A stretch of 25,831 nt of DNA from Cyclobacteriaceae bacterium (GCA_051011275.1 JBPCUG010000474.1:1-25831), one strand, 5' to 3'; positions 492 through 25,193 are shown, counted from the stretch's first letter. Translations and numbers: made by a program. The notes: generated by a model not told the origin, from the letters alone.

Positions 492-1409
492 CTACGCATA
501 ACCTTTTTTGTAAAATCCGGCCACGTCCTTTGGTAAAGCATGCCAATATTGATCGGCATACTGCACTTCTATATACTTCAACAAATTCAAATATAACTCG
601 ATTGGAAACTCCTCCTCACCTGGGGTAGCATTGAAACTCATATAATCAGGATGAGTATTTACCAGTACCATACCACCATTTTTTACAATCCAGTCAATTT
701 TTTTTGTCCAGAATCCAATATCTCTTCTACGCATTAAAATAAAAGGAGTGAAATCCTGAGCAAGTGTATAAGGCAATTCCACGTAACTACGTTTTTTTCC
801 CATGTCCGTAACCATAAAAGGGAAAATAGTCCCTACTCCAGATGGCTGCGGCTCGAAGGGATCTGTATCAAAGGTAGATAGATCATATTCAACATCTAGG
901 TCTAACATCCATTGCAAATTTCGATGCATTGCCGGTGCCCTGAAACCCACTGCCTTCCATTCTGCAAGGTAATGATTGATCTTTTCGGCTCTACTGGTAA
1001 ATATTTGTTTTGACTGAAATAGTTTCCCATCGTGATTTAAACCATGAACCCCTACCTCAAATCCGTTTTCTTCCAAATCTTTTCGCAACTCTGGAGAAAC
1101 ACTGTACCGTTCCGGTACAAAATTAAAAGAGGACTTGAAGCCACGTGCCTTTTCAAGTTTCATTAGCTCCAGACATCGATCATGTCCTTTTTGGAACTCT
1201 ACATCATGAGTCAATACAACTGCAAATTGTTTGCCTTCAGGCCACCCTTTCCAACCAGGAGGTTTTGTCCCGGCACTTTCCAAAATGGGCCACTCACTAC
1301 GATACTTGGGTAGTCTAACCTTAACCCATCTTCTCCTTAACCACAATTGCAACCATCGTGGAATTATGGTTTTAAGTTGGTAATAAGCAGTTCTTAACAA
1401 TTTTAACAT
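492..1409 (-). CDS. Polysaccharide deacetylase-like protein (NodB/CE4 superfamily), about 305 aa
   Basis: CE4-type motifs VVLTHDVE, EVGVHGLNHDG (HxxxH metal ligands), GFRAP, ELPYTL and VNTHPDY. Start placed at ATG 1409 (MLKLLRTAYY), 1 nt after the NRPS stop, instead of the overlapping ATG at 1451 given in the ORF track. Confidence 0.8.
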   Translation of the reverse strand: MLKLLRTAYYQLKTIIPRWLQLWLRRRWVKVRLPKYRSEWPILESAGTKPPGWKGWPEGKQFAVVLTHDVEFQKGHDRCLELMKLEKARGFKSSFNFVPERYSVSPELRKDLEENGFEVGVHGLNHDGKLFQSKQIFTSRAEKINHYLAEWKAVGFRAPAMHRNLQWMLDLDVEYDLSTFDTDPFEPQPSGVGTIFPFMVTDMGKKRSYVELPYTLAQDFTPFILMRRRDIGFWTKKIDWIVKNGGMVLVNTHPDYMSFNATPGEEEFPIELYLNLLKYIEVQYADQYWHALPKDVAGFYKKGYA

Positions 1410-1410
1410 A

Positions 1411-4400
1411 TTAGAAATGCAAGGTTTTCGCTGGCGTTTCAATTGCCTCATTTATTTCCTTAGCCAACATTTCCGCAAATGGCTCTACCAGCATCCCACG
1501 TGGACTTATAGGCAACTTTCTAAGTTCCACTCCCTGACTCGCTAAACCTTGCCATCCAAATTGGGGGTCATCTAATCCTTTAAAAAACTTGTCCGGTTTT
1601 ATTAATACAATTTTTCCATCGAACCCAGTAGGTTTATATGCCAATTGGGCTTTGTCATTTAGTTCTGCTATTTTTAAGTGAATGTAATCGGAATCCGAAA
1701 CCTTTTTGAAACCATTTTTAAACCGTTCTTTTAACCGATCCAAGGCTACAGAGAATCTAGCCCTTTCTGCTTGATATTTTATTAAAAAGAACTTTGACTT
1801 GTTATTCGCTTTCATCAAATTTTCAAAGTGATATAAAAGGTTTTGAAACTTGTTATAAAGCACCGATAGCCTTGTTCTTTTGCTAAAATCAATCGATTGA
1901 ATATTATAAGACTCCAACATAATTACAGGCCCTACTTGTTTACCCATCTTTTGCAACTGACGGGCCATTTCAAATGCTATAGTTCCTCCTAGGCAATATC
2001 CTCCAAGAAAATAAGGGCCATCTGGAAATTTTTTAATGATCTCATCGACATAGTGTTGGGCCATTTCTTCCATTTGCGGAATGAAACTGGACCTCCCATC
2101 TAACCCTTGACTTTGCAAGGCATACACAGGCTGATCGTATCTGTTTAGAATTTGAGCTAACTCTCTATAAAGCAATACATTACCCTCGGCCCCGTGCACT
2201 AAAAATAATGGAGGACTGGAACCTTTTGGTTGCACAGGTACTAAAGAAGGCCAAGACGACTTTCCATTATTACTTTCGATCATTTTGGCTTGATGCTTAA
2301 TTGTTGGTGATTCAAATAGGGAAGCCAAAGGCAGGGATTTACCAAATTTCTTATCGATTCGCAGGAACAACTGGGCTGCCAATAAGGAATGCCCACCCAA
2401 ATCAAAGAAACCATCGGTGACACCAACACGTTTCACCCCCAGAAGCGACTCCCACATCTCCACCAGTTGAGATTCCAGTTCGCTAGTGGCCGGCTGGTAA
2501 TCTACACTCTCTGCCGGTACACCATCAGGTTCCGGTAACGATTTGCGATCAATTTTGCCATTCGGGGTCAACGGAAACGAATCTACCGTCATGTAAATCC
2601 CTGGTATCATATAATCAGGCAGTTCTTTTTGCAGAAAAGCTTTAATATCTCCACTATCAATCTCACCATTCTCCGGTATTATATATCCAACTAATCTAGC
2701 CGCTGGTCCTCCCACTCCTTGAACAGATACCACCGCATCGTGTACACTAGAATGGGATTTCAAGCTGGTCTCTATTTCTCCTAGCTCTATCCGGAAGCCA
2801 CGTACTTTTACTTGATAATCCATGCGGCCCAAGCATTCAATCTCCCCGTTGCGCAATATGCGGGCGTAGTCTCCGGTCTTATAAATCCGCGAGCTTCCCG
2901 TAACATCAAATGGGTTTGTTATAAATCTTTCTGCTGTCAGCTCCTCTCGATTTAGGTAGCCACGAGCTAAACCGTCACCTCCTATATGTAATTCCCCGAT
3001 AGCGCCACGAGGTACCAACTGTAGCTGAGAGTCCAATATATAAATCTGGGTATTGGCGATGGGACGACCTATAGCGATCACACCTTGGCGATTCTCCACT
3101 TTTTGTAATGTCGACCAAATAGTGGTCTCGGTGGGCCCATATTCATTCCATAAACTACCCCCTTTGTCAAGCAATTGTGTAGCCAGGTCTCTAGGCATGG
3201 CCTCGCCGCCACATAGTATCTTTAGGTTCGGAGTCTTATCCCAGCCTGCATCTATCATCAATCGCCAGGTGGCTGGCGTTGCTTGCATTACAGTGACATC
3301 ACGTGTAGACAGCTCTTTTACAAGCGCCTTACCGTCCAAAGTAGTTTGTTTATCTACTAACACTAACGTTGCTCCGGTTACCAAAGGCAGGAATATTTCT
3401 AATACCGCAATGTCAAAGGACAGCGTAGTTACCGATAGTAATACATCCGAGGCTTCTAAGCCAGGCTCCTTTTGCATTGAGTGCAAGAAATTCACAACAT
3501 TGCCATGTTCCAATTGCACCCCTTTGGGTTTACCCGTTGATCCTGAAGTGTAGATAACATAAGCCAGGTTGGAGGTTGATACCTCCGTAAGAGGCGTATT
3601 ATGAGCACGTTGTTCTATGACTCCCCAGTCCTGATCCAAAAGCACTAGATTACCCTCATAGTCGGGGAAGGTGTCTTTTAGGTTCTGAGTAGTAATCAGT
3701 ACTGATGAAGAGGCATCCTCTAACATATATAACAACCGATCTTTAGGAAACGCAGGGTCCATTGGAAGATAGGCCGATCCCGATTTTAGTATCCCAAGTA
3801 ATCCTATCACCATCTCTATACCCCGGTCCACGCACAAACCCACCAACTGATCAGGACCAACCCCCTGAGAAATTAAATGATGCGCCAATTGATTCGCTCG
3901 TTGGTTCAATTCTCCATAACTTATAGAGGTCTCTTTAAACTGTATAGCCACCTTATGAGGTGTGCTTGCAGCTTGAGACTCAAACCAATGGTGCAAACAC
4001 ATTTCTTCTGGATATTCACTAAAGGTATGGTTTACCTCTTCCATCAAGAATTGCTGCTCTCTAGGTGATAGAAGCGGAATATTGCCTATGGTTTGATCCG
4101 GATTTGTTGTTATTTGTTCCAACAAAATCCCGAAGTTGGTTATCATTCTTTCAATAGTGGCCCCTTCAAAAAGATCACAATTGTACTCAAGGCTTCCCTT
4201 TATTCCCTGCTCATTTTCCTTGAGCTCCAAATAAAGATCGAACTTAGATGTGCCTGTGGCCAACCTTTCAGGATTCATTTTAATTCCATCAAATGAGCTC
4301 TCTACTAATGGCATTGACTGTAAAACGAGCATCACCTGAAACAATGGATTACGACTCAAATCGCGAACAGGCTTAAGCTCTTCTACCAGCTTGTCCAATG

Positions 4401-7400
4401 GCATTTCCTGGTGTTTAAATGCATCTAAGATCGAAGATTTGTTACGATTTAAGAATTCTACAAAAGTAGGGTCTCCACTTAGGTCCGAGCGAAATACCAC
4501 TGTGTTTACAAAGTACCCAATTGAGTTTTCTAGCTGCTGAGTACTCCGATTGGCTAAGGGTGACCCAATAGTAATATCGTCTTGGCCGCTATATCTTTTT
4601 AACAAGACATTAAAAGCACATAAAATTGTCATATAAAGGGTACATCCCGTCTGTTTGGATAACTCCTTCAACTTATTACGCAATTCCGGGGTGAACTCAA
4701 TTGGCAGGCGGTCACCTTTAAAACTTTGTCGGGCCGGTCTTGGAAAATCAGTGGATAGCTCCAATGGTGGTAAGTTATCCCCTAATTTAGTCCTCCAATA
4801 TTTTAATTGTCTTTCCTCTTCGTCTTCATCGAACCAACTGCGTTGCCAAACGGTATAATCCGCATACTGAATCGGTGGAGGCCCTAACTCAATTTTTTTA
4901 TCGTTAGCCAAAGCATTGTAAACACTTGCTATTTCAGAGAGAAATACACCAAATGACCAGCCATCAAAAATGATGTGATGCAGAAGGAACAATACTAGAT
5001 GTTGCTGCTCTCCATATTTAATGACCACAGATTTTAGTAACGACTCCGCTTTGAGATCAAAACCTTTACCGGCATACTCATTAGCAAGATCTTTGGCGGC
5101 CGCCAAGGTGTTTTGAGGTTGATCGCTGATATTATGAAAATCAAAGTACAAATCTACATTGCTGCCAATTATTTGCTTTAGCTCGCCATCAATTTCACGG
5201 AATCCGGTTCGCAAGGATTCATGACGGTCAACCATCAGCTCCATTGACTCTTTTAATGCCTTGACGTTTAATTCTCCTTCAGCTCTGAAGCAAATGGGAA
5301 TGTTATACACCGCCAGTCCTGGCTCAAGTTGATCTAAAAACCATAATGCCTCCTGTTGAAACGACGGAGGGACATTACCCAAAACACTTTGGCCTGGCAC
5401 TATTGGTTCTCTTACAGCCGAGGTTTCTTGAGCGTCCAAGACTCCAGCGCCCGATTCCTCTTTAATGATCTTAGCCAAATGTTCTATGGTTGGCGATTCG
5501 AATAAAGTGACTAACGGTATGGCTTTGCCAAACTGTTTCTCTATACGCATTAATAGCTGTGCGGCCAGCAAAGAATGTCCCCCTAAATCGAAAAAACCAT
5601 CAATAACACCAACTCCGGTAACCCCCAATAGAGATTCCCACATTTCTACCAACTGGGATTCCACTTCGTCCCGAGCCTCTTGATAATCTGCGGTCTCGAC
5701 GCTGGCACCATCTGGGTCTGGCAGCGATCTGCGATCGATTTTGCCATTTGGAGTTAGAGGGAAAGATTCCAAAGTCATGTAGATGCCAGGTATCATATAG
5801 TCAGGCAGGTCTTTCTGTAGGTGACTTTTAATCTCCGCAGTGTCAATTTCACCATTCTCCGGTATGATATAACCCACCAATCGGGGCGCCAGTCCTTCTG
5901 CACTCTGTACGGATACTATTGCATCATGAACAGTAGCATGTGATTTCAAGCTGGTCTCGATTTCTCCCAGTTCAATCCGGAATCCCCTGACTTTGACCTG
6001 GTAATCTATTCTACCCAAACATTCAAGTTCACCGTTGGCCAATATGCGAGCGTAATCTCCAGTTTTGTAGATTTTAGAATTACTTGAAGGATCAAATGGG
6101 TTGGAGATGAACTTTTCTTCATTTAGTTCCGGTCGGTTTAAATAACCACGCGCCAATCCGTCACCTCCAATATGCAATTCTCCCACTACACCTCTGGGCA
6201 CCAATTGTAGATGTTTATCTAAAATGTATACTTGGGTATTGTTAACAGGTTTGCCTATTGTTACCTTACCTTCCCTATTCTCTACATGCTTAAAGGTGGC
6301 ATAAACGGTAGCTTCTGTTGGCCCATATCCGTTCCACATGCTAGCACTTTTATCTATCATTTTGGTGGCCAAATCTCTGGGTATCGGTTCACCGCCACAT
6401 AAAATCTTTAATTTCGGAGTTTGCTGCCACCCGGCTTCTACCATCAACCTATAGGTCGCTGGAGTGCCTTGTAATACTGTCACTGACCGCTTTTCAATTT
6501 CGGCCAGCAATGCCTTACCATCCATACTGACCTGCTTGCTTACCAATACCAATCTAGCTCCTGTAACCAGGGGTAAAAAAATCTCAAGTACTGAGATATC
6601 AAAAGACAAAGTGGTAACTGAAAGCAATATGTCCTCTTGTACGAGACCAGGTGTCACTTGAACTGACGATAACATATTGACCGCATTTTTGTGTTCTACC
6701 TGCACACCCTTGGGTTTTCCAGTTGATCCGGAAGTATAAATCACATAAGCTAGCTGCTCAGAACTAAATGAGATTGAAGGGTTGTGCCCTGGCTGGGTTT
6801 CAATACTGGACCAATCATCTATGAAAACCATTTCACCCTGATAATTTGGAAAAGTATCTGCCAAATCTCTGGTAGTCACTAATATTGATGAAGAGGTGTC
6901 CTCCAACATATATTGTAGTCTGTCCTTGGGAAACATTGGGTCCAAAGGAAGATATGCTGATCCCGATTTCAAAATAGCCAATAAGCCAGCAACCATTTCA
7001 ATGCTACGGTCTACACATATACCGATTATTTGATCCGGTTTGGCACCTATCTGCAGCAGGTAATGTGCAAGTTGGTTTGCTTTGATGTTTAAGTCCTTAT
7101 AAGTAATCGATTGCTGCTTGTAAAGAATAGCTATGTGGTCCGGGTGGAAACCGACCTGATTTTCAAACCATTGATGTATACACACCTCCTTAGGGTATGT
7201 ATTTTTTGTGTCATTAATATCCTTCAAAAGAAAGGACTTTTCTCCTTCTGGGAGTATGGAAATACTTTCGATGTGCTGGTTAGGATCCAAAGCGATTTCA
7301 TCCAATAGAATTTGGAAATTTTCTATCATTCTATCTATCGTCCCACTTTCAAATAATTCGGTATTAAACTCTACTACTCCATCGGCACCATTTTCGGTCT

Positions 7401-8643
7401 CTTTTAGTAAGAATGAAAGATCAAACTTGGAGGTTTTGGTCTCTAGCTTTACTGGGTCCAACGAAATCCCATCGAATTCTACTTCTCGGGAGGGCACTGA
7501 CTGTAAGGCTAGCATCACTTGAAACAATGGATTGCGGCTTAAATCACGAGTCGGCTTCAGTTCCTCCACTAGTTTATCCAAGGGCATTTCCCGATGCTCA
7601 AACGCATCAAGAATCGAGCTTCTGCAACGCTTCAGCAGGTCAATAAACGTAGGATTGTCCGTTAAGTCGCTGCGGAACACCACCGTGTTCACATAATAAC
7701 CAATGGAACTTTCTAGTTCTGAGCTGTCCCTATTAGCCATTGGGGAACCTACTGTTATGTCGTCTTGCCCACTGTATCGTTTCAATAATACCTTAAATGC
7801 ACAAAGTAAGGTCATATACAACGTACAGTGATGAGTGCTGGACAACTGCTTTAGTCCATTTAGTGTGTTGAGGGAAATACTCATCCAGCGGACATCCCCT
7901 TTGAAGTTTTGCCGGGGAGGTCTTGGAAAGTCTGTTGGCAATTCCAATGGCTCCAACTCCCCTCCCAAATTTTCTTTCCAAAATTTCAGCTGTCGCTTTA
8001 ACTCACCTTGCTCAAACCATTTGCGTTGCCATACCGAGTAGTCTGCATATTGTATCGCGGTAGGTTCTAAGTCAATTTCCTTGGCGTGCAATAGCGCGTT
8101 GTACACTGACCCTAGTTCAGATAGAAATATACCTGAGGACCAACCATCAAAAATAATGTGGTGTAGTATGAATAGTAGTAAATATTGATCCTCTCCATAT
8201 TTAATAACTATTGGTCTGAACAGTGATTTGTCGGTAAGATCAAACCCCAGAGTAGCATGATCTCTTGCCATTTGCATGGCCTCATCGAGGGCATTTGGTA
8301 CCTGCTTTGAGATTTCTTGATAGTCAATGGTTACTTTAATGTCCTTATAAATAATCTGCCTAAGTTCACCGTCTATTTTACCAAATCCCGTCCTAAGGAC
8401 TTCGTGACGGTTGACCATAAAATCAATAGCCTCGGCTAAAACGGGAACCTTTAAGTCGCCCTTTGCTTTAAAACATAAAAGTAAATTATATACTGGTAGT
8501 CCTGGCTCAAGCTGATCCAAAAACCACAACGCTTCTTGTTGAAAAGATAGCGGAAATGTATAAAACTCTTCTTGGCTATCAGTGTTTACTTGATCTTGAA
8601 TTTCAGAAACGGTCGATTTGCCTGCTGCTTTTTTTTGATTCAT
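1411..8643 (-). CDS. Bimodular terminal NRPS: C-A(Gly-clade)-T-C-A(Gly-clade)-T-TE(Cys type), 2410 aa
   Basis: Two C domains with HHIIFDG (about 8145-8165 and 4960-4980). Two A domains with YTSGSTGKPKG, YGPTE, YKTGD, RGFRIELGEIE and NGKID. Two T domains with DGFFDLGGHSL. Terminal alpha/beta-hydrolase with HGAEG and GYCLG (Cys at 1993-1995). Specificity codes read by eye: DILQLGGVYK and DILQLGEIWK. Confidence 0.95.
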   Translation of the reverse strand: MNQKKAAGKSTVSEIQDQVNTDSQEEFYTFPLSFQQEALWFLDQLEPGLPVYNLLLCFKAKGDLKVPVLAEAIDFMVNRHEVLRTGFGKIDGELRQIIYKDIKVTIDYQEISKQVPNALDEAMQMARDHATLGFDLTDKSLFRPIVIKYGEDQYLLLFILHHIIFDGWSSGIFLSELGSVYNALLHAKEIDLEPTAIQYADYSVWQRKWFEQGELKRQLKFWKENLGGELEPLELPTDFPRPPRQNFKGDVRWMSISLNTLNGLKQLSSTHHCTLYMTLLCAFKVLLKRYSGQDDITVGSPMANRDSSELESSIGYYVNTVVFRSDLTDNPTFIDLLKRCRSSILDAFEHREMPLDKLVEELKPTRDLSRNPLFQVMLALQSVPSREVEFDGISLDPVKLETKTSKFDLSFLLKETENGADGVVEFNTELFESGTIDRMIENFQILLDEIALDPNQHIESISILPEGEKSFLLKDINDTKNTYPKEVCIHQWFENQVGFHPDHIAILYKQQSITYKDLNIKANQLAHYLLQIGAKPDQIIGICVDRSIEMVAGLLAILKSGSAYLPLDPMFPKDRLQYMLEDTSSSILVTTRDLADTFPNYQGEMVFIDDWSSIETQPGHNPSISFSSEQLAYVIYTSGSTGKPKGVQVEHKNAVNMLSSVQVTPGLVQEDILLSVTTLSFDISVLEIFLPLVTGARLVLVSKQVSMDGKALLAEIEKRSVTVLQGTPATYRLMVEAGWQQTPKLKILCGGEPIPRDLATKMIDKSASMWNGYGPTEATVYATFKHVENREGKVTIGKPVNNTQVYILDKHLQLVPRGVVGELHIGGDGLARGYLNRPELNEEKFISNPFDPSSNSKIYKTGDYARILANGELECLGRIDYQVKVRGFRIELGEIETSLKSHATVHDAIVSVQSAEGLAPRLVGYIIPENGEIDTAEIKSHLQKDLPDYMIPGIYMTLESFPLTPNGKIDRRSLPDPDGASVETADYQEARDEVESQLVEMWESLLGVTGVGVIDGFFDLGGHSLLAAQLLMRIEKQFGKAIPLVTLFESPTIEHLAKIIKEESGAGVLDAQETSAVREPIVPGQSVLGNVPPSFQQEALWFLDQLEPGLAVYNIPICFRAEGELNVKALKESMELMVDRHESLRTGFREIDGELKQIIGSNVDLYFDFHNISDQPQNTLAAAKDLANEYAGKGFDLKAESLLKSVVIKYGEQQHLVLFLLHHIIFDGWSFGVFLSEIASVYNALANDKKIELGPPPIQYADYTVWQRSWFDEDEEERQLKYWRTKLGDNLPPLELSTDFPRPARQSFKGDRLPIEFTPELRNKLKELSKQTGCTLYMTILCAFNVLLKRYSGQDDITIGSPLANRSTQQLENSIGYFVNTVVFRSDLSGDPTFVEFLNRNKSSILDAFKHQEMPLDKLVEELKPVRDLSRNPLFQVMLVLQSMPLVESSFDGIKMNPERLATGTSKFDLYLELKENEQGIKGSLEYNCDLFEGATIERMITNFGILLEQITTNPDQTIGNIPLLSPREQQFLMEEVNHTFSEYPEEMCLHHWFESQAASTPHKVAIQFKETSISYGELNQRANQLAHHLISQGVGPDQLVGLCVDRGIEMVIGLLGILKSGSAYLPMDPAFPKDRLLYMLEDASSSVLITTQNLKDTFPDYEGNLVLLDQDWGVIEQRAHNTPLTEVSTSNLAYVIYTSGSTGKPKGVQLEHGNVVNFLHSMQKEPGLEASDVLLSVTTLSFDIAVLEIFLPLVTGATLVLVDKQTTLDGKALVKELSTRDVTVMQATPATWRLMIDAGWDKTPNLKILCGGEAMPRDLATQLLDKGGSLWNEYGPTETTIWSTLQKVENRQGVIAIGRPIANTQIYILDSQLQLVPRGAIGELHIGGDGLARGYLNREELTAERFITNPFDVTGSSRIYKTGDYARILRNGEIECLGRMDYQVKVRGFRIELGEIETSLKSHSSVHDAVVSVQGVGGPAARLVGYIIPENGEIDSGDIKAFLQKELPDYMIPGIYMTVDSFPLTPNGKIDRKSLPEPDGVPAESVDYQPATSELESQLVEMWESLLGVKRVGVTDGFFDLGGHSLLAAQLFLRIDKKFGKSLPLASLFESPTIKHQAKMIESNNGKSSWPSLVPVQPKGSSPPLFLVHGAEGNVLLYRELAQILNRYDQPVYALQSQGLDGRSSFIPQMEEMAQHYVDEIIKKFPDGPYFLGGYCLGGTIAFEMARQLQKMGKQVGPVIMLESYNIQSIDFSKRTRLSVLYNKFQNLLYHFENLMKANNKSKFFLIKYQAERARFSVALDRLKERFKNGFKKVSDSDYIHLKIAELNDKAQLAYKPTGFDGKIVLIKPDKFFKGLDDPQFGWQGLASQGVELRKLPISPRGMLVEPFAEMLAKEINEAIETPAKTLHF
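4355..4383. repeat. 29-bp exact repeat shared by paralogous C domains (copy 1; copy 2 at 10839-10867)
   Basis: CTCAAATCGCGAACAGGCTTAAGCTCTTC is identical at 4355-4383 and 10839-10867, marking the duplicated C domains of modules 4 and 2. Confidence 0.85.
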
Positions 8644-8662: not shown

Positions 8663-11600
8663 TCACTTCGTTCCACGTGCCTCTCTGGGTACACTGGTTA
8701 TTTTTGGTCTACTTTCAGCTGTATTGTTATCAGAATAACTTATGATTTTAGCAATTGCTTCAATGGTTGGCGACTCAAGCAAAGTGGCTAAAGGTATAGA
8801 TCGTCCAAATTGCTTTTCGATGCGCATAGCCAGTTGTGCTGCTAACAATGAGTGACCACCTAGATCAAAGAATCCATCGTTGATCCCAATTTTTCTTGCA
8901 CCTAACAATTCTTCCCATATCACGACCAGTTGCTTTTCCACTTCATCACGGGCTTCCTGGTATTCAGCATGGCCTTCAAGCTCCATAGTTTCAGGTTCTG
9001 GAAGCGCCTTGCGATCAATTTTTCCACTAGGTGTTAAGGGGAAAGTTTCTAAGGTCACATATGTGCCCGGTATCATATAATCCGGTAGTCTACTTTGTAG
9101 AAATCCCTTAATTTCCACCGCACCCAACTTATTACCCTCATTCAAAATAATGTAACCCACTAGTCGAGGGGCGGGTCCATCTGCATCTCTTACCGACACT
9201 ACTGCATCTCTAATAGCTAGATGCTCTTTGAGCGCTGTCTCTATCTCTCCTAGTTCAATTCTAAATCCGCGAATTTTAACTTGAAAATCATTCCGGCCTA
9301 AGTAATCAATAGTGCCATCTTCCATATATCGAGCCAAATCCCCCGTTTTATATAGCTTGGTACCTTGGTCGCTTCTGAATGGATCGGGGACAAAACGCTC
9401 CGCGGTAAGTTCAGGTCGATTCAAATATCCTCTAGCCACTTGTATCCCACCTAAATAGAGTTCTCCGGGAATACCTATAGGAACAAGCTGCTGCCTTTTG
9501 TCCAGAATATAGGTTTGGGTGTTGGCGATGGGTTTACCTATGGGCACTCGCTTTGACAAGGTTTCAATGCTACAGTCCCAAGTGGTAACATCCACCGCTG
9601 CTTCAGTTGGTCCGTACAAGTTATACAACCCACAACTTAGTTTTTCGAAGAACTTCTTTTTGGTTTCAAATTCAAGAGCTTCCCCACCGCAAAAAACTCG
9701 TTTTAAACTCTTACACTCAGTGACACCGTCTTGCTCAAGAAAGATTTTAAGCATTGAAGGAACAAAATGGAGCGTGGTAACTCCTGTGGCTTTGATTAAA
9801 TCCACCAAATAAGCACTATCCCTGTGGCCCTATGGTTTTGCAATTACCAACCTGGCGCCATATAATAAAGGCCAGAAAAATTCCCCTACTGAAACATCAA
9901 AACTAAAGGGTGTTTTTTGTAAATACCGATCATTTATAGAGAGCTGATATTCCTCTTGAAACCAAATCGATCGGTTACAGATACTCCCATGCTCAACCAT
10001 CACCCCTTTAGGTTTGCCGGTAGAACCTGAGGTGTATAAAACATAAGCGAGATTTTTCTCACTAATTTCATTAGCTGGATTTTCTGGATTACAATTGGCT
10101 ATATCTTCCCAATTTGTGTCCAGGGCTACCTGGGCTATTCCTTCGTTTTTTATCTTGTCCGAGTATTTTGCTGAAGTAAGTACCATGGTCAGACTGGCGT
10201 CCTTTGCCATGAAATCGATTCTATCTTGAGGATACTCGGGATCTATTGGTAAATAGGCCCCCCCGGCCTTCAGGATTCCGTAAATGCCAATTACCATTTC
10301 AAAAGATCGGTCCAATATTATCCCAACTATTTGCTCCGGTCCAACACCCCTTGTTTTTAGATAATTAGCTAGTTGATTTGCTTTGAGGTTTAGCTCATTG
10401 TAGGTCAATTGTTGGCCATCAAATTCAAGTGCAATGCCATCTGGGGTATTCGCAGCTTGGGCTTCGAACATCGCTATCAATGTGTTTTCTTTAGGATATG
10501 GTCTATCAGTATCGTTAATATCTTCCAACAAAAACTTCTGCTCGGACTGAGATAATAGAAATATGTTACCTATGGCTTGGTCTGGATCTGCAACAATTTG
10601 CTCTAGCAAAATCTTAAAATTATTCAGCAGCCGTTCGATTGTTGCTTCTTCAAAAAGATCTGTGTTATATTCAATAAACCCTTTGATACCATCCTGACAT
10701 TCCTTCAATTCTACTAAGAGGTCAAATTTAGAGCTACCAGTACCCACCCAAACCGGATCTAAGGAAAGTCCATTAAACGAACTGTGGTTAGAAGACATAG
10801 ACTGTAAAGCAAGCATTACCTGGAACAGTGGATTGCGGCTCAAATCGCGAACAGGCTTAAGCTCTTCCACTAATTTATCCAACGGCATTCCTTGGTGTTC
10901 AAATGCATCAATAATTGGACCTTTGCTACGTTTTAGCAGCTCAGTAAAAGTGGGGTTGCCTGTTAAATCGGTGCGTACTACCACAGTATTTACATAGTAA
11001 CCGATAGAATCTTCCAGCTCTGAATTACTCCGGTTGGCCATTGGTGAACCTACCGATATATCCTCTTGCCCGCTGTACCTTTTTAATAATACATTAAATG
11101 CACAAAGAATCGTCATGTACAAGGTACACCCGTGCTTCCTGGACAATGCATTTAGTCCGTTTAGGATCTCAGCCGAAAAATCGATCATCCGGTAATCACC
11201 TTTAAAATTTTGCCGGGGAGGTCTGGGGAAATCGGTGTGCAGCTCTAAGGGCTCCAATCCGCCCCCTAACCTCTTTTTCCAAAATTCCAATTGCAGCTCC
11301 TTCTCTTCTTCGTACCATTTCCGCTGCCAAACTGAATAATCTGCATATTGGATATCCAGAGGTTTCAAACTGACATTTTTCCCATTCAAGAGTGTGTTAT
11401 ATGCTGCCGCTAATTCTGAAGCAAAAATATCCTTTGACCAGCCATCAAAAACAGTATGGTGTATCACAAACAACCATAAATATTGTTGTTCTCCATACTT
11501 GATTACTACTGGTCTAAACAATGATTGATCTTTGAGATCGAATCCTGTGGTAGCTTCGTCATTTACTATAAGCAAAGCTTTATCTAGCGCGTTTGGGTCA

Positions 11601-11944
11601 GTAGAAACATCCTGGTATTCAATACGCACCTCTACATTCGTTTGGACAATCTGCTTTAGTTCTCCATCGACCTTCCCAAACCCTGTTCTTAAGGATTCAT
11701 GACGATCGACCAGGTAGTTAATCGATTTAGTCAAAACGGGTAACTCTAAATCGCCTTTAACTTTATAACAGATTGGAATGTTGTAAACTGGTGATCCTGG
11801 CTCAAATTGATCGAGAAACCACAATGCTTCTTGTTGAAAAGAAGGAGGGAAAACAAATGTTTCGTTTTCATTTTCGACTTTGTGTTCTGTTGACTGATTC
11901 TCTTGGTCGCCTAGCACATTGAAATCTTCATTTTCTAAATCCAT
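8663..11944 (-). pseudogene. Monomodular NRPS C-A(Ser-clade variant)-T interrupted by a single in-frame TAG at 9830-9832; 1093 residue positions if read through
   Basis: ORFs 9830..11944 and 8663..9808 are in the same frame. The junction reads GCA AAA CCA TAG GGC CAC AGG GAT AGT GCT TAT TTG = AKP*GHRDSAYL, inside the A core. C domain HHTVFDG, A motifs YTSGSTGKPKG/YGPTE/SGKID and T motif GGHSL are intact. Whether this is a real pseudogene, a sequencing error or read-through cannot be decided from the sequence alone. Confidence 0.85.
10839..10867. repeat. 29-bp exact repeat shared by paralogous C domains (copy 2)
   Basis: Identical to 4355-4383. Confidence 0.85.
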
Positions 11945-11953
11945 GTTTGTTAT

Positions 11954-14900
11954 TTACTTTTCGTTAGCTCTATATGCTTTTCGAGTTACCTTAGAAATCG
12001 AATGACCTTCGGAAGGCTTTTCATCTAGCTTCTCTTGTTGCTTGATTATGCCAAAAATAGTAGGGGCCTTATAAAAATGCCCTAATGAAACGTTAAATCC
12101 AAGTTCTTTTTTCAGCCTAAAGCTAAGTTTTGTGAGTGATAATGAATGACCACCAAGGTCAAAGAAACTATCATGTATTCCGATTTTGCTTATGTGCAGT
12201 TCTTCTAACCAAATATCTGCCACTTTTATTTCCAGTTCAGTTTGAGGTGGGGTGTATTCCGTTTTGTCATTGCGCTGAATTTCTGGTATGGGTAGGGCTT
12301 TGTGATCCAGTTTTCCGTTTGGTGTTATGGGAAATGATTCCATTAATACATAATTTGCTGGAACCATATACTCTGGAAGTTGATCCAGCATGTGGTTTCT
12401 CAAAGTGCCAGGATCAACACTATCTTTATCATTAGCTACCAGATATGCTACCAATCGTTTATCACCCGGGGTATCTTCTCTTACCAATACTGCCGCTTCT
12501 CTGATAATCTCTTGTTGCATCAGTACTGATTCTATTTCCCCTAATTCGATCCTAAATCCTCGAATCTTAACCTGGTGGTCTATACGACCTAAATACTCTA
12601 TATCAGATTCCGTTATAAATCTCGCCAGATCACCAGTTCTATAAAGTGTCTCACTTTCCCGATGAGGGTTTTTTATAAATCTGGATTTATTTAATTCCGG
12701 GCGTTCCAAATAACCCTCGGATACCCCAGCCCCACCTACAAACATTTCGCCTGGAATACCCAAGGGAACAGGCTGAAGGGCGCTGTCAAAAATATAGACC
12801 TTAAGATCAGGTATGGCCTCACCAATTACACTCCCGGACTCCAAATCTCGGGCACTTAATGGTCTATAGGTTACATGTACGGTGGTTTCCGTAATTCCAT
12901 ACATATTTACAAGTTTCGGAGTGTCGTCACCATGGCGCTCAAACCACGGAGCCAAACTTTGAAGGTCTAGAGCTTCTCCCCCAAATATTACTGTTCGCAG
13001 TGATAGTTGATCTGTAGTCCGTTTCGATTCCTCTGCTTTGATAAGTTGATTAAAAGCTGATGGGGTTTGATTTAAAACTGTTACCCTTTCACTCACAAGT
13101 AGGTCGTAGAATAGTTCGGGATCACGAGTGGTCATTTGAGGGACTACCACCAATTTACCTCCAAATAACAAAGCTCCCCAGATCTCCCAAACAGAAAAAT
13201 CAAAGGCATAGGAATGAAATAATGTCCATACATCAGAGCTTGTGAAATTAAACCAATGCTCGGTTGATTGAAATAATCTCACCACATTATAGTGCGATAC
13301 TTTTACTCCTTTTGGCTTCCCAGTGGAACCGGATGTGTAAATAACGTAGGCCAATGCTGTGGGGTCGAAAGATCTTCCCGGGTTCGATTGGCCAGAGTTA
13401 TTGATATTAACATCATCTAAAAAAATAACCTCAGGGGCGTTTTCCGGGATCTTATCAGCCAGTGCTTTTTGGGTCAAAAGCATCGGTGCTTTGGCATCTT
13501 CAAGCATGAATGCCAAACGTTCCTTTGGATAGCTAAGATCAATAGGCAAATAAGCCCCTCCGGATTTTAGAATGGCCAGAATACCTACAATTAATTCAAG
13601 AGACGGATCAGCGCATATCCCTACCAAGTCTCCCTTGCTAATCCCCCGAGATAATAAATAATTGGCCAGTTGATTAGCTTTCCTGTTCAGAGTATCGTAG
13701 TCAAGGGTGTCCCCCTGGTAGGAAATTGCGGTTAACTTAGGATTTTGTTTAACCTGATCTTCGAAAAGATCGATAATACTAAGATTAGATTGACTGGTGT
13801 CAATTTTCCTTTCAGTAGTTTTTTCGAAGGTTTCTATTTCTTGTTCAGTCAATAATCTTAAGCTGCTGACTGGTAAAGTAGGGTCAGCAATAACAGAATC
13901 AATCAGAGTCTCAAAATGACCAGCCATCCTTTCAATGGTTTCAGGGTCAAATAAGCTAGTACTATATTCAAAATATCCTTTTAACCCAGTCTCGTTTTCA
14001 AACAAATGTAAGGCCAAATCATATTGAGAGGTTCCGCTATCAAACCAGAAAGGGCTAAGTTTAGCATCTCCAAGTTGTAATTCCGTTTGGTTGGAAATCT
14101 GTAAAACAACTTGAAACATAGGATGATAACTCATATCCCTTTCCGGGCTCAATCTTTCTACTAATTTTTCAAATGGAACGTCCTCATTTTGATAGGCCTC
14201 CAAAGTGACGTCTTTCACCTGTTTTAACAACTGATCAAAAGTTGGGTTTGCAGAGAAATTGGTTCTTAGTACCAACATATTTAAGAACAGGCCAATCATA
14301 TGCTGCAGCTCCTTGCGATTGCGCTTGGCCATTGGTGTCCCTATAATGACATCCTCACTGCCCGTATATCTATATAACAATGTGTTATATATAGCACTAA
14401 CCACCATAAACAAAGTACATTGGTTACTTTGAGCCAATCTTTGCAATTTCTGATACCGGGCACTATCAATCTCTACAAAATGCTTGGCTCCATTGAAATC
14501 TTGCTGGCTAGGTCTAGGCCGGTTTCTTGGGAGTTCCAATACAGGTGGGCATCCTTTTAATTGCTTTTCCCAATACTTAAGTTGATCCTCAATGAGCTCC
14601 TCCTCCATCCACTGACGCTGCCATTGAGCGTAATCAGCATATTGTATACTTAGTTCAGGTAAATTTGGTGCTCGTCCTTCTAAAAATGCTTGATATAAAA
14701 TTGATAATTCATTAAATAATATGCCCATTGAAAGCCCATCACAAATTATATGGTGAAGATTCAGGATTACCACATGTTTGGTGGGACTTTGAGAAATTAG
14801 TTTAGCTTTTATCAAGGGCCACTTTGCCAATTCGAAAGTACTTTGTGCAACTTCTCTAACCAACTCGTGCATTTTAGAATCAGTGCCGTCCTGAACATCT

Positions 14901-15280
14901 ATAGTTACCTCTTCGATTTCAATTTCAATTTCATTGGATTCAATTGGTTGTTGAACAGGCTGATCAGAAATCTTTATAAATTCACTCGACAATATTTCAT
15001 GTCGAGCTAGTATGGCGTTGAGAGCCTTTTGTAACAAGACCCGGTCAATTTCCCCATCTATACATAATGCTACTGGCACATTATCGGAGGGATGGCCGGA
15101 ATAAAGTTGATATAAAAACCACAGTCTTTCTTGAGCAAAGGAAAGTGGTGCCGCCTCTTTATTTGCTCGTGGAATAATAGGTATATTCGATATTCCAATG
15201 CCTTCTGATTTCAACAGAGCAGCAAATTCGCTCCTTTGTTCAGGAGTTAGATTGGCAATATTTTTTAACAAATCTTCCAT
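11954..15280 (-). CDS. Monomodular NRPS C-A(Thr)-T, 1108 aa
   Basis: C domain HHIICDG. A domain FDFSVWEIW / TVLNQTP / VIFGGE / NMYGITETTVHV gives the code DFWNIGMVHK, the canonical Thr signature. T domain SFFDLGGHSL. Confidence 0.95.
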   Translation of the reverse strand: MEDLLKNIANLTPEQRSEFAALLKSEGIGISNIPIIPRANKEAAPLSFAQERLWFLYQLYSGHPSDNVPVALCIDGEIDRVLLQKALNAILARHEILSSEFIKISDQPVQQPIESNEIEIEIEEVTIDVQDGTDSKMHELVREVAQSTFELAKWPLIKAKLISQSPTKHVVILNLHHIICDGLSMGILFNELSILYQAFLEGRAPNLPELSIQYADYAQWQRQWMEEELIEDQLKYWEKQLKGCPPVLELPRNRPRPSQQDFNGAKHFVEIDSARYQKLQRLAQSNQCTLFMVVSAIYNTLLYRYTGSEDVIIGTPMAKRNRKELQHMIGLFLNMLVLRTNFSANPTFDQLLKQVKDVTLEAYQNEDVPFEKLVERLSPERDMSYHPMFQVVLQISNQTELQLGDAKLSPFWFDSGTSQYDLALHLFENETGLKGYFEYSTSLFDPETIERMAGHFETLIDSVIADPTLPVSSLRLLTEQEIETFEKTTERKIDTSQSNLSIIDLFEDQVKQNPKLTAISYQGDTLDYDTLNRKANQLANYLLSRGISKGDLVGICADPSLELIVGILAILKSGGAYLPIDLSYPKERLAFMLEDAKAPMLLTQKALADKIPENAPEVIFLDDVNINNSGQSNPGRSFDPTALAYVIYTSGSTGKPKGVKVSHYNVVRLFQSTEHWFNFTSSDVWTLFHSYAFDFSVWEIWGALLFGGKLVVVPQMTTRDPELFYDLLVSERVTVLNQTPSAFNQLIKAEESKRTTDQLSLRTVIFGGEALDLQSLAPWFERHGDDTPKLVNMYGITETTVHVTYRPLSARDLESGSVIGEAIPDLKVYIFDSALQPVPLGIPGEMFVGGAGVSEGYLERPELNKSRFIKNPHRESETLYRTGDLARFITESDIEYLGRIDHQVKIRGFRIELGEIESVLMQQEIIREAAVLVREDTPGDKRLVAYLVANDKDSVDPGTLRNHMLDQLPEYMVPANYVLMESFPITPNGKLDHKALPIPEIQRNDKTEYTPPQTELEIKVADIWLEELHISKIGIHDSFFDLGGHSLSLTKLSFRLKKELGFNVSLGHFYKAPTIFGIIKQQEKLDEKPSEGHSISKVTRKAYRANEK

Positions 15281-15281
15281 T

Positions 15282-18200
15282 TTAGCTTTCGCCTGGACTT
15301 TGTACTTTTTTCAATAAGTCTGCTAGTTTATTACTGTTATCCTGTTGGGTAACCTGTTTCTCATCTACCAATGATGCCAATGATGCCACCGTTGGTGCCG
15401 CAAACAAATCTTTTATATCAATACTAACGTTCGTCGATTTGTTGATATCCGCAATAATCTGAGTACCTAAAAGCGAATTACCCCCGAGCTCATAATAGTT
15501 TTCATAAATACCCAATTGCTTTATCCCTAATCGACTGCGCCATATTTTGCTAATCTCCTCCTCCAATTGATTTCTAGGGCCCTCAATGCTGGAGTCAAAA
15601 CTCATTTCCTCTTGAACCTCAATCTCTTCTTCAGGAGCATCCAATCCGGTGAATGTCAATGAACTTCCATAGGCACTTTGAAAATCTCTGGGGTAAATCA
15701 CTATGTGATGTAGCCCACTACTGACGATCCGCTCAAATACCTCTAGCCCTTCTCGGTTGGTTATGGCATTCTCCATAGCTTTTTCCTTCCAGGGTCCTTC
15801 TGGTAAATCAGTTAATATGCCCACTTCTTTCCAGCCGGGCCAGTTAATATTAATTGTGGTACAGTCTGGAATCGTCGCACTTGGTTGACTATTAGCATCC
15901 AAGAACGCGCTTGCAGAAACATAATCTATTTGGCCGGTTGGAGCTAAATAGGCGTTAATCGAAGAAAACTGGATAAATAGCGGGATGTTCAAAGCCGCCA
16001 CTTGGTCTTTCAAATTATTTGTGCCTTCAACTTTGGGACTTAGGACGTTTTGTAATGTCTCTCGGGTTTTCTGGCTTATAGGGCTGTCATCTATCATCCC
16101 TGCACTGTGGATAACACCATCTATAGACCCGAAATGTTGTTTCAATTGGTTAAAAGTTTTTGCAACAGCCTCTTTATCTCCAACATCTACTATTGGAGTC
16201 AAAACCTCAATACCCTTTTCCTCCAAAAATTTCAAGCCTTCAATTCGCTCTTTGGTTCTCCGGTCAAGAGAAGAATCTGCTAGAAGCTTGTCCCAAGAAT
16301 CCTTAGATGGGATTTTACTTCTTCCTAGCAACGCCAGTTTTACCTGGTATTCATTCGCCAAATGCTTCGCAACCTCCAACCCTACCCCATTGAGGCCTCC
16401 GGTAATAGCATAGACCCCTTGCTTTTTAAACTTCGAGGCAGAAGGGATACCAGGTGACATGGTCACCGGCTCAAAATGCATGCTCCAAGTAGATCTTTCC
16501 TTCAAAACACGTATCGGCTCCACACTTGATCTTGAAAATTCATTAAGTATTTTAGGAGATAATTGGAGCGACTGGTGATCAATTAATTGCATGTCCAGTT
16601 GCATCATTTTGATGTGGGGATACTCCTTCGGTATGACCCTAGTGGGCCCAATAAGTAATGCACCTCCGGTCACAATTTTCTCCTCTCCGGTAATCTCAAA
16701 AGTATCTTTTGAAATTACTCCTATTCTGAATTTTTTATCTACCATATGGCCACATACAGAAGCTGTATCCGATAGCGCCATAAAATTAGCAAGGTACTGA
16801 TCAGTATTTCCCTCAAATAGACAACAATATAGAATGTTGATATCGCTCTCTTTAACGATAGTCATCAAACGTTCAAATTCTTCCTTATCAGTTGAATCTA
16901 TTTCAATATCTGAATTGTTTTTTTTATTTAACGAAGAAGTAAATCTATGGACTGATTTGCCCTGAGATTGCAATGAGTCCTCTAACGCACTTTCAAGCTC
17001 CGTGTTAGCACCCATTATTACCCAAGCGCCAGTAGGTAACTCCAGGGTTCCCAGGTTAAGGTTTGCACGTTTCTTCCAGGTTGGTACGTAGCCCCAATTT
17101 TTCAGTTCTTGTCTGCTTCTGGCAGTCAACTGGTTCTGCTTAGCACTATACCAATGTTCACTACGATCAAACGGATAAACTGGCAGCGGCACCCGGTTTA
17201 GTGGTTGTTTTCCATTGACCTCTTCCCAATTGATTTTTATGCCCTCTAGAAACAATTTTCCTAATGCATTCAGCTGAAATATTAAATCAGAGCCTTCCTC
17301 CTTAGGATGGCGCATCGATGGATAAGCTGTTTGTTCTTTACTCCGTAAAGGATGTTGGTTTACAAAAGTACTTAGGTTTCGGCCAGGTCCTACTTCCAAA
17401 AAAATACGACCGGGTACTTTAAGCAATTCTTCCAGGGTGTCATTGAATCGCACGGCACTGCGCAAATGATCCTGGTAATATTGATTGCTGGTGGCCATCT
17501 CCTTAGTAATCCAGCTACCGGTTACATTTGAAATATAGGGAATCTCGGGAGGCTTCAGCTTAATCTTTTGTAAGGCTTTATCGAAGTCTTCCAGAATTAC
17601 GTCAATCATCGGGGAATGGGCAGCAACATCCACCTTCAATTTCTTCGCTTCTACACCCTCTTTAGCCAGTACTTCGAAAAGTTGGTCTATGGACTTTTCC
17701 GGCCCGGATGCTACGCAAAGCGAGGGTGTATTGATGGCAGCCAAGGTCAGGTCGTCCTTTAGGTATTTTGTTACTTCCTTTTCTGACATTGGTATGCTTA
17801 GCATAGATCCTTTGGGCAAGGTTTCGAAAAGCCTCCCCCGTATTACGACCATATATAAAGCATCTTGCCATGAGATCACCCCTGACAAACATGCCGCAAC
17901 ATATTCACCTACACTATGGCCAGTCATAGCACTGGGCTTTATCCCCCAGGAATCCCAAAGCCTAGCCATTGCATAAGATGATATGAATAAAGCTGGTAGA
18001 CCAATGGAAGGTCTTTTGAACGCTTCCCTGGCCTCAGCTAAGGCGCTCTCCTCCGGAAACAGCAACGGTTTTAGATCAAAATCCATTTCCTTGCTTAAAA
18101 AGTCTAGGCACAAATCGACCTCTTCTCGATACTTGACTTCCCCTTGGTATAAATCCTTGCCCATATTGGGATATTGTGCACCACCACCGGGGAACATAAA

Positions 18201-19793
18201 TACCAAATCTTTTGATTGATCCGGTGCTAAACCTTGAGGCACCTTACTTGGGTCTGGATTTTGGAGTAACTCCGATGCTTGTTTTCGATCTTCAGACACT
18301 AAAAATCTTCGATGCTTCAAGGCTTTTCTACCTACTTGGAGGGTGCTGGTAATGTCTTGAAATGAGAAATCTGTAGAGGCGAGATAAGCAGAGAGATTCT
18401 CCGTCAGATGGCCAAGAGCAGTAGCACTATGACTAGACCAGACCATAAGTCGCGGTTTGGGAGATTGCTCTGCCGATTTTCTGCTGGGTGCTTCCTCTAG
18501 GACGATATGTGCATTGGTACCGCCAATTCCTAACGAAGTTACTCCTGCCCTCCTGGGGGGGCCATTAGTGGTCCACTCACGAAGCCGGTCATTGATAAAA
18601 AATGGGCTTTGTGGGAAGTCAATTTCGGGGTTGGGTGTTTCGAAGTTTAAGGTTGCTGGAATTTTTTGGTGTTTTAAAGCCAACGCTGTTTTGATCAATC
18701 CAGCGACTCCTGCGGCAGCATCCAGATGTCCTATGTTGGACTTCACGGAGCCGATAGCACAGTATTGGTTTTTGTCCGTATCCATTCTGAAGGCTTTTGT
18801 TAGCGCAGTAACTTCAATGGGATCTCCCAAGTAGGTACCGGTTCCATGAGCCTCAATATATGAAATGCTATCAGCGCTTACTCCAGCACTTGCTAAGGCT
18901 TCTACCACTACCTCTGCTTGGCTGTTTACGCTTGGTGCAGTGTAATCTGTTTTTCGCGAACCATCGTTATTGACGGCACTGCCTTTTATTACAGCATGTA
19001 TGGTATCATTGTCCTTTACGGCATCAATTAATCTTTTGAGAGTAACGATACCTACACCGCTTCCGAAAATCGTACCTTGGGCACTGGCATCAAAAGGGCG
19101 GCAATGTCCATCCGGTGAAAACACGGCCCCTTTGCTGTAAAAATGACCTAACTCATTTGGTACTCTTATTGAAACGCCACCGGCTAAGGCCAGATCACAC
19201 TCCTCATTGATTAAACTTTGACAGGCACTATGTACAGCTACTAATGAAGTGGAGCAAGCAGTCTGCACTGTAACACTGGGACCTTTTAAATTCAATTTAT
19301 AGGAAACCCTGGTGGTCAAAAAGTTATTATCATTCCCAATAAGCGTCGATAAGTAATCAGTTACGAATTTGGAGTTGTGTCCGCTGTTGATGAAATAAGT
19401 GTTCATAGCCGTTCCTCCGTAAACACCTATCGGCCCATTAAAATCTTCGGGGTTGTATCCCGCATGTTCCATAGCATGCCAGGCGCACTCCAGGAAAATC
19501 CTCTGTTGCGGATCCATTAATACCGCCTCTCTAGGAGAATATCCAAAAAATTTGGCATCAAAAGACTTGTAATTTTCTAAAACCGGCGAGGCTTTTACGT
19601 AACTAGGATCATTGACAAAAGCTGCATCGACACCTGCTTTGATAAGCTCTTCTTCGCTAAAGAAGGAAATTGACTCCACACCATTAGCAAGATTTTCCCA
19701 ATATGATTCGATGGAATCAGCACCGGGGAATCGCCCCGCCATTCCGATTATAGCAATATCAAACTCACTGATATTTTGCAAACTCTGCTGCAT
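15282..19793 (-). CDS. Single-module cis-AT type I PKS: KS-AT-KR-ACP, 1503 aa
   Basis: KS triad VQTACSTS (Cys 19254-19256), EAHGTGT and NIGHL. AT GHSVG (Ser 17913-17915), RGRLF and VAAH. KR TGGLNGVG, HSAGMIDD, PKVEG and YVSAS. ACP LGGNSL. No DH or ER between AT and KR. Confidence 0.95.
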   Translation of the reverse strand: MQQSLQNISEFDIAIIGMAGRFPGADSIESYWENLANGVESISFFSEEELIKAGVDAAFVNDPSYVKASPVLENYKSFDAKFFGYSPREAVLMDPQQRIFLECAWHAMEHAGYNPEDFNGPIGVYGGTAMNTYFINSGHNSKFVTDYLSTLIGNDNNFLTTRVSYKLNLKGPSVTVQTACSTSLVAVHSACQSLINEECDLALAGGVSIRVPNELGHFYSKGAVFSPDGHCRPFDASAQGTIFGSGVGIVTLKRLIDAVKDNDTIHAVIKGSAVNNDGSRKTDYTAPSVNSQAEVVVEALASAGVSADSISYIEAHGTGTYLGDPIEVTALTKAFRMDTDKNQYCAIGSVKSNIGHLDAAAGVAGLIKTALALKHQKIPATLNFETPNPEIDFPQSPFFINDRLREWTTNGPPRRAGVTSLGIGGTNAHIVLEEAPSRKSAEQSPKPRLMVWSSHSATALGHLTENLSAYLASTDFSFQDITSTLQVGRKALKHRRFLVSEDRKQASELLQNPDPSKVPQGLAPDQSKDLVFMFPGGGAQYPNMGKDLYQGEVKYREEVDLCLDFLSKEMDFDLKPLLFPEESALAEAREAFKRPSIGLPALFISSYAMARLWDSWGIKPSAMTGHSVGEYVAACLSGVISWQDALYMVVIRGRLFETLPKGSMLSIPMSEKEVTKYLKDDLTLAAINTPSLCVASGPEKSIDQLFEVLAKEGVEAKKLKVDVAAHSPMIDVILEDFDKALQKIKLKPPEIPYISNVTGSWITKEMATSNQYYQDHLRSAVRFNDTLEELLKVPGRIFLEVGPGRNLSTFVNQHPLRSKEQTAYPSMRHPKEEGSDLIFQLNALGKLFLEGIKINWEEVNGKQPLNRVPLPVYPFDRSEHWYSAKQNQLTARSRQELKNWGYVPTWKKRANLNLGTLELPTGAWVIMGANTELESALEDSLQSQGKSVHRFTSSLNKKNNSDIEIDSTDKEEFERLMTIVKESDINILYCCLFEGNTDQYLANFMALSDTASVCGHMVDKKFRIGVISKDTFEITGEEKIVTGGALLIGPTRVIPKEYPHIKMMQLDMQLIDHQSLQLSPKILNEFSRSSVEPIRVLKERSTWSMHFEPVTMSPGIPSASKFKKQGVYAITGGLNGVGLEVAKHLANEYQVKLALLGRSKIPSKDSWDKLLADSSLDRRTKERIEGLKFLEEKGIEVLTPIVDVGDKEAVAKTFNQLKQHFGSIDGVIHSAGMIDDSPISQKTRETLQNVLSPKVEGTNNLKDQVAALNIPLFIQFSSINAYLAPTGQIDYVSASAFLDANSQPSATIPDCTTININWPGWKEVGILTDLPEGPWKEKAMENAITNREGLEVFERIVSSGLHHIVIYPRDFQSAYGSSLTFTGLDAPEEEIEVQEEMSFDSSIEGPRNQLEEEISKIWRSRLGIKQLGIYENYYELGGNSLLGTQIIADINKSTNVSIDIKDLFAAPTVASLASLVDEKQVTQQDNSNKLADLLKKVQSPGES

Positions 19794-23605: not shown

Positions 23606-23680
23606 ATTTGGTAGTTCTCTAAAAAAATTGAAGCCCAATCAGGGACACCAAACAAGGGTTCAGGTGGTTCATTCAAGGCG

Positions 23681-25166: not shown

Positions 25167-25193
25167 CGATATTAACCTTTGACGGCATCCACC

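Follow-up and report, generated by a model that had tools for sequence, protein, structure and literature searches.

Introduction

Release domains decide which product leaves an assembly line, be it an acid, a macrocycle, an amide or a strained ring. The accepted picture of thioesterase (TE) domains is, to our knowledge, that of a Ser/Cys-His-Asp triad, and TE-like domains without a triad are usually written off as inactive. In a structural review from 2023 (PMC10510592) and the SulM paper from 2024 (PMC11298585), Ser/Cys-His-Asp triads are the only TE active sites described, and the Asp takes one of two positions. Besides the Cys TEs of ObiF1 and SulM, which form a β-lactone and a β-lactam, respectively, AB3403 is the only other solved Cys TE listed (PMC10510592, PMC11298585). 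Our literature searches on Cys TEs and on TE domains without the catalytic His returned ObiF, SulM and AB3403 only and nothing on the group of domains described below; a paper on PUFA-hybrid lipids and one on LgnA (a Ser-type TEII) concern other families. Likewise, neither NCBIfam nor the ESM Atlas nor these literature searches yielded a separate family or description for the group.

In this study, we analyzed a stretch of 25,831 nucleotides from a Cyclobacteriaceae bacterium (GCA_051011275.1 JBPCUG010000474.1:1-25831; the whole stretch is referred to as the window), in which an NRPS gene ends in an unusual TE domain. A previous sequence-only reading of this DNA had described a TE with a Cys nucleophile, a Glu in place of the Asp and no catalytic His, and had taken these three coordinated changes as signs of a distinct subfamily rather than of random decay.

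The gene cluster and its terminal thioesterase

According to the ORF list and Pfam matches, the minus strand of the window encodes a hybrid PKS/NRPS cluster. In its first protein (DH-FkbM-...-ACP; 19802-23638, minus strand), the N-terminal domain of a PKS dehydratase is accompanied by an FkbM methyltransferase and a carrier domain; full-length homologues with about 39% identity are found in two further loci (L046 and L049), where they are located downstream of TEs of the type described here. This first protein is followed by a KS-AT-KR-ACP protein (15282-19793), a C-A-T module (11954-15280) and a second NRPS C-A-T module, which is split within its A domain into two ORFs comprising C and the first part of A (9830-11944) and the rest of A together with T (8663-9808), all encoded on the minus strand. 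Because of the in-frame stop in this upstream module, the window's own assembly line may be impaired; alternatively, the split at 9808-9832 may have to be bridged by read-through, or the stop could stem from a sequencing error.

The line ends with an NRPS of 2410 aa (1411..8643, minus strand; P0001) of the architecture C-A-T-C-A-T-TE, for which Pfam reports two Condensation, two AMP-binding and two PP-binding domains as well as one Thioesterase domain. Its C-terminal ~280 residues constitute the TE (1414..2253, minus strand; supported by PF00975, AlphaFold2 and Foldseek), which directly follows the last carrier domain of the line. The Ser of this T domain, which delivers the chain to the TE, lies in a GGHS motif (2386..2388, minus strand; DNA, translation and PP-binding match). 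No other release domain was detected by Pfam among the window ORFs scanned. TE residues are numbered according to the translation of window:1414-2310 on the minus strand (P0002). Divergently oriented to the cluster, a membrane acyltransferase-3 gene (24102-25166, plus strand; PF01757, E 4.4e-32) is followed by an ORF of 185 aa (25179-25736, plus strand) with no Pfam or NCBIfam match.

Fold and active-site motifs

The AlphaFold2 model of the window TE (mean pLDDT 89.6, pTM 0.88) shows an α/β-hydrolase TE fold with a lid between β6 and β7. With this model, Foldseek retrieved NRPS/PKS TE domains as best matches (7crn, 4zxh, Vlm2, NocB and Pks13) and a probability of 1.00 to many TE structures. 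NCBIfam gave partial Pks13/EntF matches only, and the ESM Atlas generic “thioesterase domain” clusters only. The domain has the PF00975 score, the fold, the G-x-S/C-x-G elbow after β5 and the post-carrier location of a type I TE and departs from this class in one feature, the loop His after the last strand, which is replaced by Pro270. The PF00975 match reached 91.9 bits (cut-off 26.4), but covered only profile positions 1-107 of 226 and only the N-terminal half of the domain. This partial match and the absent canonical His would fit an inactive remnant or a purely structural cap, comparable to the triad-less TE0 domains, of which PacP TE0 is a published example regarded as inactive (as cited in PMC8748450); this explanation is weighed below against the conservation of the domain.

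In detail, the nucleophile position is occupied by Cys106 (codon TGC, 1993..1995, minus strand) within the elbow GGYCLGG, right after the predicted strand 100-105, so that DNA and translation bear out the G-Y-C-L-G elbow proposed before. Glu133 in the motif VIMLES takes the acid position I, 27 residues past Cys106 and right after the predicted strand β6 (126-132); here, the earlier assignment named the correct residue, but its coordinates (1913-1915) were shifted by one base, as the GAG codon is found at 1912..1914 (minus strand). Translation further agrees with the Pro at 1501-1503 and with the lack of a His between the conserved Trp and the final helix: Pro270 and Arg271 (1498..1503, minus strand) are located in the segment L-P-I-S-P-R-G-M-L-V-E-P-F (LPISPRGMLVEPF), with Pro270 4 residues past the predicted strand β8 (261-266) and before the final helix (278-297), and residues 253-297, starting with the conserved Trp253, are free of His. 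The only His after Trp253 is residue 298, which is not conserved. A misaligned or shifted His is thereby ruled out for the window copy; among its relatives described in the next section, 43/302 have a His at position 271.

The TE of AB3403 (4zxh) was the best match among solved structures, both with the single sequence (E 5.9e-20) and by profile (E 3.8e-58), and also one of the top fold matches. Since the profile alignment places the L-P-G-D-H of AB3403 on the L-P-x-x-P of the window TE and its relatives, Pro270 falls exactly in the column of the catalytic His. The window TE is thus a domain with Cys at the elbow, Glu at the acid position and Pro in the catalytic-His column.

A large clade of thioesterases without the loop His

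A search with the TE region returned 720 NRPS/PKS proteins, the best 120 of which span about 97% of the domain and are 31-64% identical to it. Among these best 120 of 720, Cys is present in 118, Glu or Asp in 92 and 26, respectively, and Pro270 in 109. When 1.84 billion representatives were searched with HMMER, 1129 clusters were obtained at E <= 1e-30; of the 150 best representatives at 50% identity, 127 belong to the clade defined in the following. For the tree, 352 non-identical TE domains from the protein-search matches and from 79 genome loci were aligned to the family HMM, and the resulting tree was rooted only at its midpoint. The window TE lies inside one clade comprising 302 of the 352 domains (support 0.96). 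All 302 members have Cys106 and none has a His at 270 (Pro in 291), while the acid is kept in 299 (Glu in 191, Asp in 108). The 50 relatives outside the clade, in contrast, mostly carry His270 (43) along with Cys (33) or Ser (14) as nucleophile. On this tree, the clade is a large, monophyletic group of type I TEs and sister to the Cys-Asp-His TEs of the AB3403 type. The exchange of the loop His for Pro appears to have happened once, at the base of the clade, with His not seen again at position 270, which is the most parsimonious reading of the midpoint-rooted tree.

The window copy keeps 40 of the 41 positions that are near-invariant in the clade (>= 93% conserved) and is consequently an intact member; it also has all six clade markers, namely Cys106, Pro270, Asn44, Asn136, His/Gln161 and Asn164. 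Its closest homologues (64%, 51% identity and below) have Cys and Pro rather than the Ser and His that would have marked this copy as a degenerate one. A degenerate single copy is ruled out, as these homologues share all features. The proposed subfamily is hence supported, since the pattern recurs in 302 related domains, far beyond chance, and GYCxGG and PxGMLxEPF are indeed conserved together in hundreds of loci. The idea of three coordinated changes, however, stands only in part. While the loss of the His holds throughout the clade, the split between Glu and Asp makes Glu133 a trait of the window's subclade and not of the family. Moreover, only the His loss is new, because the nearest relatives are Cys TEs with a normal His.

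Conservation also bears on the suspicion of an inactive remnant or cap. Against it speak the invariant Cys and the elbow, the oxyanion-loop motif and the acid, all kept across at least 10 phyla, as well as the C-terminal location of the TE in 228/229 proteins and, in the window, the lack of any other detected release domain. We therefore regard an inactive or purely structural domain as extremely improbable, and the non-catalytic cap considered in the earlier reading as unlikely in view of the invariant Cys.

Clade members terminate both NRPS and PKS lines. Their commonest setting is a single C-A-T-TE module of about 1340-1400 aa, and further ones include KS-AT-KR-ACP-TE PKS proteins (P0013, P0029 and P0044) and long PKS-aminotransferase-NRPS hybrids. 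Of the 116 A domains that precede a clade TE and have a readable specificity motif, about 95 show a motif starting with F-D-I-[AS]-x-L, and such a D-I-L start of the code is a mark of glycine-activating domains. The 79 genome loci stem from at least 10 phyla and nearly all from metagenome-assembled genomes, with representatives of Ignavibacteria, Acidobacteriota, Desulfobacterota (including the isolate Geobacter sp. AOG1), Verrucomicrobiota, Planctomycetes, Chloroflexi, Nitrospira, Bacteroidetes and others.

Outside the clade, we observed canonical Cys-His relatives that occur twice in one protein, once of them internally (C-A-T-TE-...-C-A-T-TE; P0049, P0099, P0107, P0135, P0098 and P0164; 3400-4400 aa). 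In the internal copy, the acid position is usually taken by Asn rather than by Asp (L-N-C-A-P). Some other proteins contain two TE domains in tandem.

What could stand in for the lost His

The positions separating the clade from its canonical relatives are, apart from Pro270, Asn44, Asn136, His161 and Asn164. Asn44 (2179..2181, minus strand) belongs to the oxyanion loop H-G-A-E/G-G-N and is present in 292/302 members, whereas relatives have Gly, Asp or Asn. Asn136 (1903..1905, minus strand) follows the acid in the motif E-[ST]-Y-N (also E/D-T-Y-N) in 281/302, where relatives carry Pro or Ala. Lid helix 1 contributes the motif Q-N-x-x-[FY]-H-x-x-N (1819..1830, minus strand) with His161 (1828-1830; His in 275/302, Gln in 23) and Asn164 (1819-1821; 294/302). 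A basic residue occupies position 271 in 253/302 members (Arg 134, Lys 76, His 43), but 46/302 have Ala (33) or Gly (13) there, so that this residue cannot be essential. Glu133 is mostly paired with Arg271 and Glu42, and Asp133 with Lys, His or Ala at 271 and Gly42. Taken over the whole clade, only Cys106 and the acid are essentially universal.

Based on this pattern, we tentatively propose, at a probability somewhat short of even, that these TEs are active Cys-thioester release domains with His-independent off-loading. The chain would move from the phosphopantetheine thiol of the last T domain to Cys106 via thioester exchange, an energy-neutral step documented for ObiF1 (PMC6668435). This step would require a thiolate only and not a strong base, and the thiolate of Cys106 could be stabilised by the helix dipole of the elbow and by the basic residue 271 paired with Glu/Asp133. 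Off-loading would then proceed without a His general base, with the attacking group bound and oriented by the acid 133 and a conserved polar lid face formed by Asn157, His/Gln161, Asn164, Lys178, Arg185 and Tyr225. Chemically, an amine or an intramolecular group would fit such a site better than a His-activated water. Against the proposal speaks that the chain built by the window's line offers no obvious free amine and that this line may be impaired by the in-frame stop.

Two His residues are possible bases and count against a His-independent reading. One is His39 in the H-G motif of the oxyanion loop (2194..2196, minus strand; 301/302), which is about equally conserved in canonical relatives (45/50) and there part of the oxyanion loop. 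The other is His161, a candidate for the non-standard base considered in the earlier reading. In this case, the catalytic His would have moved from the loop after β8 to lid helix 1, oriented by Asn164 or Asn136, yielding a papain-like Cys-His-Asn arrangement on a hydrolase fold, with the chemistry otherwise as in a normal Cys TE. Consistent with such a relocation, His161, Asn164 and Asn136 are clade-specific and co-occur with the exchange of His270 for Pro, while in canonical relatives the same helix motif (N-x-x-[YF]-[WH]) often contains Trp at 161, and only 2/302 members lack a His at all seven candidate positions (161, 211, 264 and 269-272). However, parsimony on the tree indicates a minimum of 9 losses of His161 inside the clade, with Gln, which is not a base, in 23 of the 27 members without it, and four of these groups persist as subclades with a depth of up to about 1 substitution per site. 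The association between 161 and 270, moreover, effectively amounts to one evolutionary event, given the single origin of the clade. As Gln can take over the hydrogen bonds of a His but not the transfer of protons, His161 is probably not an obligatory general base, and the substitutions point to a role in hydrogen bonding rather than in proton shuttling. Altogether, we consider a relocated His rather unlikely.

Further candidates were dismissed. An alternative His at 264 or 211 is conserved in neither case, His211 changing state at least 24 times in the clade, and a metal site composed of Cys/His/His/Glu was dropped, as canonical relatives have the same residues except His161.

Genomic neighbourhood and a possible hand-over to glycans

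Directly downstream of the TE, the window contains a gene for a distant CE4/NodB-type deacetylase-like protein (492..1409, minus strand; Pfam, NCBIfam and PDB profile match), whose likely start codon ATG (1409-1407) lies one base past the stop codon TAA of the TE (1413-1411). Matches of this protein to known families are weak, i.e., PF01522 with E 4.5e-4 (7 of 15 family members match), TIGR03006 with 1.1e-5 and the PDB entry 3rxz with E 0.001 by profile. An alignment of the family (A2) shows invariant T-H-D and H-x-x-x-H-D motifs.

Homologues of this CE4-like gene are found near the TE in 19/79 loci and directly after it in about 10, from three phyla. Other recurrent neighbours in the 79 loci are genes for a PPTase (19), a group-1 glycosyltransferase (11), a FemAB-like GNAT (10), a DegT-type sugar aminotransferase (9), a hexapeptide acyltransferase (9), a P450 (8) and the exosortase EpsH (7). 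In five Acidobacteriota loci (L057, L059, L061, L062 and L078), genes for a glycosyltransferase, a FemAB-like protein, a CE4-like protein, the exosortase EpsH and a PPTase form a conserved block directly upstream of the NRPS with the His-less TE, and a P450 gene lies downstream. In 10 loci, the His-less TE is directly followed by an unannotated, Cys-rich protein of ~320 aa, which consists of two repeats, shows several invariant Cys and Trp residues and matches no Pfam family (alignment A3; e.g., L077:8954-9922, L053:8944-9873 and L074:8900-9811).

These glycan-flavoured neighbourhoods prompt the speculative idea of a hand-over, in which Cys106 would serve as an acyl-holding station whose sole task is to accept the chain and to offer it either to a co-encoded enzyme or to the amine of a sugar or glycan. 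By analogy to the NodB/NodA logic, the acceptor could be an amine freed by the adjacent CE4/NodB-like deacetylase. The recurrence of CE4-like genes, to which the window adds its own copy, is in line with this idea, as are the glycosyltransferase, DegT aminotransferase, hexapeptide acyltransferase, FemAB-like and exosortase genes nearby and the membrane acyltransferase-3 gene of the window. Yet 59/79 loci have no CE4-like gene within 8 kb, the neighbour counts refer to these 79 related loci only, and the CE4 assignment itself is a weak one, so that we hold a mere holding function to be unlikely. In a combination with the His-independent mechanism, a His-base-free Cys thioester would pass a Gly-terminated peptide or polyketide to an amine acceptor. 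In a subset of loci, this amine would belong to an amino sugar or a glycan that the co-transcribed CE4/NodB-like deacetylase has exposed, and the product would thereby be covalently attached to surface glycans. In this complete form, the proposal is distinctly improbable.

Implications

At 50% identity, the clade falls into at least 127 clusters, and its members are spread over at least 10 phyla, most of them uncultured. If active, the clade would represent a second catalytic solution on the TE fold, affect the prediction of products by genome mining for many soil and sediment gene clusters, and offer a Cys-thioester release catalyst for engineering approaches.

Comparison with known systems

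A Cys thioester intermediate for acyl transfer, as proposed here for the clade, is employed by the PHA synthase PhaC and by papain-like and transglutaminase-type enzymes, all of which use a His. The Cys-His-Asn of papain resembles the candidate arrangement Cys106/His161/Asn164; the folds are unrelated, and we do not claim homology. With the canonical type I TEs, e.g., of EntF, SrfA-C, Pks13 and FAS (PF00975), the clade shares the fold, the position after the carrier domain and the architecture of oxyanion loop and elbow, but these enzymes feature a Ser nucleophile and a Ser-His-Asp triad (PMC10510592) where the clade has Cys.

PacP TE0 likewise is a TE-like domain without a complete triad (cited in PMC8748450). 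As far as the published description goes, the clade differs from it in keeping an invariant nucleophile, many conserved residues in the region of the active site and the terminal place.

The TEs of ObiF1 and SulM have in common with the window TE the GxCxG elbow and, if our proposal applies, covalent thioester catalysis after exchange from the carrier (PMC6668435, PMC11298585). Nevertheless, both keep the His (His1284 in ObiF1 and His2956 in SulM) and have their Asp at position II after the next strand (β7), whereas the acid of the window TE is at position I and the loop His is absent (PMC11298585). ObiF1 matches the clade profile weakly and in its N-terminal part only (E 1.3e-14).

The closest described system is AB3403 of Acinetobacter baumannii, a C-A-T-TE protein (4zxh/4zxi), which shares the Cys nucleophile (GGWCFGG in AB3403) and the acid at position I after β6 (PMC11298585) as well as the lid and C-terminal motifs N-x-x-A-x-x-x-Y-x-P and G-W. 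Its module was crystallised in the presence of glycine (4zxi; PMC10510592), and the TE of most clade members is preceded by an A domain with the D-I-L start. Asn44, Asn136, His161 and Asn164 characterise the clade and not the canonical relatives, and AB3403 keeps the catalytic His at the very position where the clade has Pro.
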